Below are positions 10,900-11,971 of a DNA stretch of 64,000 bases, piece by piece (within the stretch, counting starts at the first letter, position 1; each line of letters begins with the position of its first letter). A program made the translations under genes and the position numbers. Source of the stretch: an uncultured Clostridium sp. Its GTDB lineage: Bacteria; Bacillota; Clostridia; TANB77; CAG-508. Below the pieces are notes generated by a model. That model was not told where the DNA came from and searched no databases. It saw only the letters and a list, made by a program, of their open reading frames with translations. The DNA is taken from assembly GCA_948471055.1 (NCBI GenBank), contig CAOKQZ010000001.1:37206-101205 (forward strand), read 5' to 3'.

Positions 10900-10929
10900 T
10901 TGACAAACTTAAGTTTAAAATGTTATACT
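10900..10929 (+). promoter_or_regulatory. sigma-A-type promoter (TTGACA, 18 nt, TGtTATACT)
   Basis: TTGACA at 10900..10905, an extended -10 TGT and TATACT at 10924..10929. Confidence 0.55.
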
Positions 10930-10935
10930 ATCTAT

Positions 10936-11024
10936 ACTAGATCAGTAGTTTAGCAAACCTACGGGACTAAACTCGGAAAACACACCTCGGATTTTTCAAA
11001 AAGTCTGAGGTGCATTTTTATTTT
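10936..11024 (+). ncRNA. candidate short structured RNA or leader ending in an intrinsic terminator, immediately upstream of the Abi gene
   Basis: Lies between the promoter above and a 9-bp hairpin (CACCTCGGA 10983..10991 pairing with TCTGAGGTG 11004..11012) followed by CATTTTTATTTT. The Abi RBS GAGGAGG starts 5 nt after the T-run. No ORF is present. Confidence 0.35.
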
Positions 11025-11026
11025 AT

Positions 11027-11971
11027 GTGAGGAGGCAACTGTTGGAAAAAGAATTTAAAACAATTGAAGAACAAATTACATTGTTACAAATGAAAAATTT
11101 ACATATCGAAAATATACCCTTTGCAAAAAACGTTTTGTTAAACAATAACTACTATTATTTAATCAATGGATATAAAGATTTATTTATCGATAAGCATAGT
11201 GCTAATAAAACTTTTCTCCCCAATGCACGTTTAGAAGAAATTTACCAATTATATTGGTTTGATCGAAAATTACGTACCATATTTTTAGAATACATTTTAC
11301 TTATTGAACAAAAGATAGACTCCTATATTGCTTACGAATTTTCAAAAAAGTATGGTCACAAAAATTACTTAGTTCCTGAAAATTTTAATAATACCCCCAA
11401 AAACAAGGATTTAATTCACAAATTTATTAATGACATTCATCTTGAAATTTCTCATCAATACAAAAATTCCAACAAAATGATTGTACACTATTTAGACACC
11501 TATAACTATATTCCATTATGGGTATTAGTTAGAATCCTATCTTTCGGAAAAATTTCTAAATTTTATAGTTTCATGAAACCAAAAGAATAAAATAATATTT
11601 GCAAAAACTTTCATATTCCCAATCATATATTGAAAACTTATTTAATTAACTTAGGCAATGTAAGAAATATTTGTGCTCATGACGAAAAACTATTTGATAT
11701 TATTCTAAAAACACGAATAAATGTTACTCCTTATCATAAACTTTTGGGACTAAGTAAGCATGGTAATAATTCTACTTATGCTACAAGAGATTTATTTTCC
11801 GTTGTTATTGTTTTAAAAATACTTTTAGAAAACCATTCTTTCCAAGAATTTTATCTTAAAATCATTACTGCTTTAGAGAATTTAAAAATAGGTCTTTCTT
11901 CTATTTCGATTCATAAAGTTTTATCCAAAATGGGATTCCCTAAAAATTACGAGAAACTACTATTTTTATAA
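11027..11971 (+). pseudogene. Abi_2 (AbiD/AbiF-like, HEPN-type) abortive-infection gene interrupted by an in-frame TAA
   Basis: ORFs 11027..11590 and 11630..11971 are in the same frame and are separated only by TAA at 11588..11590. The second part carries the family motif LGNVRNICAHDEKLFD (R-x4-H). The combined length of about 314 codons fits the family. Confidence 0.7.

Follow-up and report, generated by a model that had tools for sequence, protein, structure and literature searches.

We analysed a 64,000-nt stretch of contig CAOKQZ010000001.1 from an uncultured Clostridium sp. (called the window below; all positions are counted from its first letter) and describe here the region around its Abi_2/AbiD-F gene, which is preceded by a promoter and an untranslated leader. 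This region is probably a self-contained 1.16-kb RNA-toxin cassette of the AbiF type with a null allele of the toxin and a retained leader, its function being assigned by analogy with characterised systems. Several observations underlie this reading: the anatomy of the locus, a leader RNA that is conserved, covaries and is linked to the gene family, the modelled AbiF fold of the protein, a stop allele that is real, and the recurrent decay of the gene with retention of the leader. Transcription and termination, binding of the RNA to the protein, toxicity and anti-phage activity are what we infer. Note that the combination of AbiF and a non-coding RNA was established as an RNA-antitoxin system, and proposed as the ancestor of Cas13, only in 2024-2025; for this reason, the novelty is confined to the motif class, its modular use with MNT-HepT genes, and a natural allelic series.

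A conserved leader RNA with covarying hairpins

A preliminary description of this DNA had placed a promoter (TTGACA-18-TG-TATACT) ahead of a stretch of about 90 nt closing in a hairpin plus U-run (10983..11024), followed by a ribosome-binding site and an AbiD/AbiF-family gene with the motif RNICAH. All of these elements were found again. The sigma-A type promoter (10900..10929, + strand, as are all features below unless noted) consists of TTGACA at 10900-10905 and TATACT at 10924-10929, separated by 18 nt that include a TG; it matches the consensus at 11 of 12 positions with the TG extension present, and transcription is predicted to start near 10936. A promoter scan by itself performed at chance level (8 sites found versus 10 expected). 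It is the conservation of the TTGACA-N18-TGTTATACT promoter in more than 50 loci, and not the scan, which argues that promoter and leader are real. The intrinsic terminator (10983..11024) comprises a hairpin at 10983-11012, with 13 pairs in the scan, and a T-run extending to 11024; in the 1.6 kb scanned, 2 terminator-like sites were found versus 0.4 expected. The ribosome-binding site GAGGAGG (11029..11035) is located 6 nt ahead of TTG 11042, and the spacing AGGAGG-N6-8-TTG is kept among homologues.

For the comparison of leaders, 55 homologue loci were fetched from relatives at 46-72% protein identity, all of which are metagenome-assembled genomes (MAGs) of uncultured gut Clostridia. Promoter and leader motif are present in nearly all of them; over the ~60 loci compared in total, essentially each homologue has the leader ahead of it, and matches to our model R1 of the motif lie directly upstream of the abi gene in virtually every locus. 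Applied to the 64-kb window, R1 gave one match alone, which is leader unit 1 (10933..10981; 58 bits, E=4e-10). Across the family, the motif begins about 7 nt past the promoter and reads UAGAUC(A)GU, a 7-bp stem, the loop (A/G)UAA-CC-UACG-GG-N, the return strand, and a C. In the window copy, the 5' flank UAGAUCAGU (10938-10946) and the 3' flank CGGA (10974-77) enclose the stem P1, in which 10947-10953 pairs with 10967-10973; inside it follow the bulge CAAA (10954-10957), the helix P2 (CC/GG, 10958-59 with 10964-65) and the UACG tetraloop (10960-63). A single-sequence fold of the window leader reached -25.6 kcal/mol (z=-4.6) and showed the same structure as the model of unit 1.

The stem sequences turn over among relatives with the pairing kept: we found AGUUCAG/CUGAACU, ACUUCAG/CUGAAGU and ACCUCGG/CCGAGGU as well as ACUUUGG/CCAAAGU, ACCACGG/CCGUGGU and ACCUUGA/UCAAGGU. 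One such compensatory change, C-G to U-A, is found in the window stem, AGUUUAG/CUAAACU. When counted on 27 distinct leader units, 99.2% of cells are paired, and double (compensatory) changes occur at 6 of the 7 stem pairs. The covariation score was reached by none of 500 shuffles, and the signal collapses if the partners are slid by one column. In a 100-column alignment of whole leaders the second hairpin covaries as well, and RNAalifold, to which no structure had been supplied, recovered these helices and, in addition, a possible basal helix of 3 bp (GAUC.G with C.GA). The leader is a conserved, covarying structured RNA attached to this Abi_2 clade, in agreement with the link between conserved upstream non-coding RNAs and AbiF-type HEPN proteins that had been pointed out for this locus. 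A pseudoknot between GUAG and the loop sequence CUAC was also considered; it was rejected, because its fourth base covaries as part of P1.

Three leader architectures occur in the family. In the first, two tandem units of about 40 nt are present and the second is followed by a U-run; in the second, a single unit itself acts as the terminator; in the third, found in the window and also in L016, L019 and L051, unit 1 is followed by a plain terminator hairpin. The statement that the RNA shows no tandem repeats therefore holds for the window copy and fails for the family, whose members have two ~40-nt tandem units. The terminator hairpin of the window is the positional homologue of unit 2: the stem ACCUCGG/CUGAGGU has been kept (10984-10990 with 11005-11011), and the conserved apical tip has been replaced by AU-rich sequence. 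A syntenic relative with an intact gene, L057, has a leader identical to that of the window save for one base (10937). Thus, the degeneration of unit 2 is not part of the decay of the gene. Three loci, namely L002 (~3800-4000), L021 and L047, contain an extra element of about 130-200 nt between the leader terminator and the ribosome-binding site of abi, which includes ...CGCGTCGACAAATCT...AGATTTGTC...; two of these three abi genes carry stops.

An Rfam/covariance search had been proposed for the leader, with the result that it is not the Rfam abiF motif (RF03085). With E<=10 as the limit, a scan with Rfam 15 gave no match in this region of the window, nor in L003, a relative with two units, nor in the whole 1.99-Mb genome; as a positive control, RF03085 detected both published RCd22 motifs of phiC2 with 37.6 and 19.5 bits, the gathering threshold being 37 bits. 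Both motifs are alike in several respects: RF03085 is likewise a short hairpin (~35 nt) with an asymmetric internal loop, located upstream of Abi_2 and sometimes present in two copies. However, in the RF03085 consensus an outer stem of 6 bp surrounds an inner stem of 3 bp, and the bulge, CAAAUC, belongs to the 3' strand; in the motif of the window clade the bulge belongs to the 5' strand, the inner stem is CC/GG, the loop is a UACG tetraloop, and the consensus sequence is another. The leader motif is analogous to RF03085 in its general design (stem, asymmetric internal loop, short stem, loop), yet it is a different motif. Neither RF03085 nor R1 found its motif in four phage-borne Abi_2 loci, and R1 found none in phiC2.

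When sampled across the family, the leader motif was present in 25 of 301 genomes, which represent 14 of 50 genera. A scan of IMG/VR with the exact pattern gave one chance match and, within the reach of an exact pattern, no sign that phages carry the leader RNA. Of the matches to the pattern in metagenomes, 74 of 81 failed model R1 and are due to chance.

The apical segment CC-UACG-GG(A) of unit 1 (10958-10966, CCUACGGGA) is identical over 9 nt to the universally conserved 16S rRNA sequence at which primer '341F' is aimed, which we take to be the UACG tetraloop of helix 14. C(UACG)G is a very stable tetraloop, and the identity could be a coincidence or a case of substrate mimicry. If the tip mimics a substrate, this would hint at small-subunit rRNA as the target of the toxin, and one RNA could be the common regulator or antidote of several HEPN RNases.

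The Abi_2 gene and its stop allele

The open reading frame behind the leader matches Pfam PF07751 (Abi_2) at 4.3e-43, covering profile positions 2-184 of 184, and the PADLOC profile AbiD at 5.9e-59. The search for homologues yielded more than 2,000 proteins. Nearly all of the nearest ~120 have a length of 309 residues and start with MEKEFKT, which identifies TTG 11042 as the true start. The alternative start GTG 11027 was rejected, as it lies within the ribosome-binding site and the N-termini of the homologues point to TTG 11042. The HEPN motif R-x4-H is RNICAH at codons 208-213 (R208 and H213; 11663-11680) and is invariant in 20 homologues.

For protein searches and modelling we used P0001, an intact allele that is 98% identical to the window protein. 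A phmmer search with P0001 hit one PDB sequence alone, 8VZ6_A (PbAbiF), at 7e-14 and ~22% identity, and R208 and H213 align with R210 and H215 of PbAbiF 8VZ6, which are its catalytic residues (PMC12373285). In agreement with this finding, the AlphaFold model of P0001 (pLDDT 86.5) gave a single significant Foldseek match to the PDB, again 8VZ6_A, 'PbAbiF dimer bound to ncRNA' (E=6.5e-9, TM 0.69/0.72). As judged from the model, the protein has the PbAbiF fold.

The window copy has no intact reading frame and is a pseudogene or null allele; intact copies occur in other samples. Translation of the frame gives a single internal stop, the TAA at codon 183 (11588..11590), which is a Gln codon in the intact allele and in all homologues, and no further stops or frameshifts follow. 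Codons 1-182 (11042..11587) are still translatable; codons 184-309 (11591..11971), which include the RNICAH motif, form an untranslated remainder. The stop had been described as single, in frame and upstream of the HEPN motif, and codon 183 indeed precedes codons 208-213. The accompanying proposal that the toxin has been knocked out and the RNA locus persists gains support as well, since the TAA lies ahead of R-x4-H; unit 1 is intact, with unit 2 persisting only as a terminator. Compared with the syntenic contig L057, the window shows 33 substitutions and 0 indels over 5.2 kb. Among the substitutions is T instead of C at 11588, i.e. TAA instead of CAA (Gln); at 11580, the window encodes Pro at a nearly invariant Gln of the family (Q180P).

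It is extremely unlikely that the TAA is an artefact of assembly or sequencing, or that it is read through or recoded, such that the gene is really intact. One could suspect this because the genome is a MAG of 57 contigs and the open reading frame is otherwise undamaged, but the distribution of the alleles speaks against it. We surveyed Logan contigs of public mouse-gut runs placed on the locus and found T at 11588 in the runs X1, X3 (as the major variant), X4, X10, X25-27, X28 and X29, which come from at least seven independent studies from 2016-2025, and on several haplotypes. The alternative C was carried by X5 and by three Logan contigs, and X3 had it as its minor variant, which amounts to a plain CAA/TAA polymorphism. 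Moreover, TAA is an ordinary stop of the neighbouring genes, and in most haplotypes the stop is paired with another damaging change, Q180P. In-frame CGG codons are absent from the gene, which also speaks against recoding. The haplotype X28 combines the TAA stop with Gln180; this is why the stop probably arose first and Q180P followed under relaxed constraint. TAA is a real, widespread allele that coexists with the intact CAA allele and is not an assembly error. It is also very improbable, if slightly less so than an artefact, that the N-terminal fragment of 182 residues is functional, for example as an RNA-binding decoy or a dominant-negative partner. The stop allele is frequent, occurs on several haplotypes and has no stops or frameshifts downstream, as would be expected of a functional fragment; however, these haplotypes are separated by only a few substitutions, and a recent origin of the allele may be explanation enough, and Q180P just ahead of the stop suggests relaxed constraint. 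In addition, other relatives decay differently (by deletions, frameshifts or multiple stops), and no ribosome-binding site or start is available to express the C-terminal half.

Two further differences to L057 were observed. Ten substitutions are concentrated within 31 nt (11488-11518), affecting eight codons and changing two residues (codons 155 and 159), whereas the rest of the ~5-kb alignment is ~99.5% identical; from its sequence, this segment resembles a short tract acquired by recombination with a diverged allele. At position 10937, which lies just past the predicted transcription start and within the conserved AUAGUAGAUC, the window has C, whereas almost all relatives including L057 have G. 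The run X5, which represents the intact allele, agrees with the window at this position, so the change is seemingly unlinked to the stop allele.

Proposed function of the leader RNA

The order of promoter, small RNA, terminator and toxin, which had been likened to type III toxin-antitoxin systems, equals the layout of the characterised system RCd22-AbiFCd (PMC12373285) of the Clostridioides difficile prophage phi027/phiC2 (Saunier et al. 2025). RCd22 is an RNA of ~100 nt with two hairpin motifs that attenuates abiF transcription by premature termination and also binds the toxin directly and thereby neutralises it, in cis as well as in trans (PMC12373285). Shared with the window locus is the succession of SigA promoter, ~100-nt non-coding RNA with two hairpin motifs, Rho-independent terminator, ribosome-binding site and Abi_2/AbiF gene; the protein belongs to the same family with its catalytic R-x4-H, and relatives of the window likewise have two tandem units. 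The differences concern the motif, which in RCd22 is CCCGCC-A-AGC-loop-GCU-CAAAUC-GGCGGG with a large bulge on the 3' side and in the window clade a 7-bp stem with the 5' bulge (A/G)UAA and a CC-UACG-GG tip, and the end of the RNA, as in the window clade the last unit is itself the terminator. Furthermore, the window cassette is chromosomal and surrounded by housekeeping genes, whereas RCd22-AbiFCd lies inside a prophage lysis module, and unlike the latter it carries a null allele of the toxin.

PbAbiF-AbiFr, which is an AbiF dimer of Prevotellaceae with two non-coding RNAs (8VZ6), provides the sole significant match to the protein in both structure and PDB sequence, at ~22% identity. According to the accounts of the work of Zilberzwige-Tal et al. 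2025 given in PMC12737573 and PMC12373285, these two RNAs are bound by the dimer; PMC12737573 describes that each monomer binds one hairpin non-coding RNA encoded upstream, whose bulge blocks the RNase site. As far as these accounts go, PbAbiF uses one RNA per monomer and the window clade has one or two units per transcript, and the likeness rests on the protein. For the lactococcal group AbiD/AbiD1/AbiF, a review states that conservation is higher in the upstream region than in the gene, that this region is needed for cloning or function, and that the group is now regarded as consisting of protein plus RNA (PMC13064643). This group is a different clade; the window protein is ~30% identical to phage and Lactobacillales homologues. 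In ToxIN/AbiQ-antiQ, a promoter, a repeated RNA, a terminator and the toxin gene likewise follow each other, and the RNA antitoxin outlives or neutralises an endoribonuclease; however, the fold of ToxN/AbiQ is unrelated to that of HEPN/AbiF. ToxI consists of 5.5 repeats of 36 nt and is cut by the toxin. In contrast to this array, the window has one motif unit and its relatives have at most two; neither the ToxN/AbiQ fold nor several ~36-nt repeats were found at the window locus.

From these comparisons, the following mechanism can be proposed. The constitutive sigma-A promoter would transcribe a short RNA composed of one hairpin unit and a terminator derived from a second unit. Most transcripts would probably end at this terminator to give an RNA of ~90 nt, and the AbiD/F HEPN ribonuclease would be translated after read-through. 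If RCd22-AbiFCd and AbiFr-PbAbiF are taken as a guide, the hairpin RNA might both attenuate transcription of the toxin gene in cis and bind the toxin dimer, thereby blocking its RNase site, which would correspond to a type III toxin-antitoxin system with the logic of abortive infection. In this strain, Gln codon 183 has become TAA with promoter and leader unit 1 unchanged, and due to this stop the product is devoid of the R-x4-H catalytic helix.

A toxin-first order of decay, as expected for a toxin-antitoxin pair, had been proposed for the window; broken genes with kept leaders, and orphan leaders, do recur in relatives. In a tblastn survey, about 10 of ~50 homologues (~20%) were broken: by stops in L021, L045 and L047, and by frameshifts or deletions in L041, L044, L050 and L144. 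In L048 and L071 the N-terminal half is missing, and L054 and L055 contain abi remnants of 76 residues. All broken homologues except L041 have kept a high-scoring leader. Among the orphan leaders, L075 retains just the last abi codons, and L077, L080/L091, L083 and L086 have no gene; in five human-gut contigs, promoter and unit are located directly upstream of a peroxiredoxin gene.

The leader is not exclusive to Abi_2, as it also heads an MNT-HepT operon. In the same genome, R1 detected a second site (G000:C29:2491-2577, locus L066, minus strand) with two units, both intact, behind the same upstream block and promoter. The genes that follow encode a nucleotidyltransferase of 113 residues (PF01909/PF18765; MNT, 1098-1454 of L066, minus strand) and, overlapping with it, a HepT-like HEPN RNase of 119 residues (PF01934; 746-1105, minus strand). 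By its domain composition, this pair is assigned to the type VII HepT/MntA toxin-antitoxin systems and not to Abi_2. MNT modules with or without HepT follow the same leader in several relatives (L084, L087, L013/L092), and in L013 a complete Abi module follows directly behind the MNT module. In MNT contexts, the leaders show a stronger degeneration of their apical loops (CCUAAGG, ACUUAAGU, AUCUACGAA). Our preferred reading is that the promoter-leader has been captured by a different toxin cassette. A more far-reaching idea, which we regard as distinctly improbable, is that the promoter-leader is a portable RNA platform of two unrelated HEPN toxin systems, the AbiF type and the HepT/MntA type, whose cargo is exchanged at chromosomal hot spots and whose hairpin tip mimics a substrate.

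It is unlikely, though it deserves serious attention, that the leader acts in cis only, as a strong promoter with an attenuator or terminator that holds toxic genes at a low level and is reused for different cargo, and not as an antitoxin. That the same promoter and two-unit leader drive MNT-HepT in the same genome, that MNT modules with or without HepT follow it in relatives, that orphan copies stand directly upstream of the peroxiredoxin gene, and that RCd22 also acts by premature termination would all fit such a role. On the other hand, a plain attenuator needs no invariant apical loop and bulge (AACCUACGGG), and these were kept while the stems turned over completely. Unit 1 has no U-run behind it and hence is no terminator, although no other part of the leader is as well conserved. 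The degenerate loops in MNT contexts are expected of a promoter capture after loss of the Abi partner, and homologous proteins bind hairpins of this kind (8VZ6; PMC12373285).

Several points nevertheless weigh against the assignment of the region as an AbiF-type RNA-toxin cassette. As RF03085 misses the leader, the analogy to RCd22 and AbiFr is one of layout and protein homology, not of RNA homology; binding of the hairpin and toxicity in this clade are what we infer by this analogy. The pattern of decay is equally expected if the RNA or the promoter has another use, and the occurrence ahead of MNT or MNT-HepT genes is as compatible with a generic cis-regulatory or promoter cassette as with a dedicated antitoxin. 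With respect to expression, the coverage of the locus by the runs X25-28, which are labelled 'metatranscriptomic', resembles that of DNA; from X36-38, which are true RNA-seq runs, no assembled contigs were obtained at the locus, and a low-depth contig of one 'FL-cDNA' run starts at 10954 and reads through the terminator. Finally, if two units are needed per dimer, the window RNA may be a weaker antitoxin; yet L057, whose gene is intact, has the same leader.

For the strain represented by the window, the consequence is that the defence gene is dead. Beyond this strain, the locus defines an uncatalogued, well-supported class of hairpins for a clade of gut Clostridia, which is ready for a covariance model; to our knowledge, one RNA motif alone has been catalogued for AbiF systems. 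Mouse-gut populations contain both intact and null alleles of the toxin, and the relatives offer one-unit, two-unit and orphan RNAs. This material can serve to address the number of RNA units required by a toxin dimer and the fate of the RNA once the toxin has been lost. The leader ahead of MNT-HepT hints that RNAs, or at least promoter-leader cassettes, are exchanged between HEPN toxin systems.

Cassette borders and insertion site

The whole Abi cassette (10834..11998, ~1.16 kb) is a presence/absence block between glmU and spoIVA. This follows from an empty site and an alternative insert in near-identical relatives: in G308 (L189), which belongs to the same genus, the sequence corresponding to window position 10832 joins that of ~11997, and G224 and G307 (L188 and L190) carry an unrelated insert of 560 bp at the same glmU-spoIVA junction. 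The glmU-spoIVA spacer is a small hot spot. The block takes in ~65 nt of conserved AT-rich sequence 5' of the -35 box (10834..10899), which moves with the module and is a candidate UP element or operator; a similar stretch is located ahead of the promoter at most homologous loci, as well as at the MNT-HepT locus of the same genome. A search for target-site duplications at the cassette borders yielded AT-rich junctions that were not resolvable, and the 1.16-kb cassette contains no mobility gene or recombinase. In most other genera, the Abi or MNT module adjoins a peroxiredoxin gene (the sites of L001-L050 and L068-L093), and fragments of the peroxiredoxin gene of 40-60 codons are often found on the other side of the module. 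The modules are sometimes stacked, with MNT then Abi in L013 and Abi then a truncated second one in L022. These arrangements suggest that the peroxiredoxin-adjacent sites are a recombination hot spot.

Both 560-bp inserts of L188 and L190 contain a small membrane-anchored open reading frame on the minus strand and end with ...TCAATAAAAAA(T/G)TTTT; loose ends of this alternative insert were also seen in the mouse-gut runs X27 and X3. Further downstream, the collinearity of the window with L057, whose spoIVA gene is intact, stops sharply at 13286, and spoIVA of the window is without its last ~90 codons.

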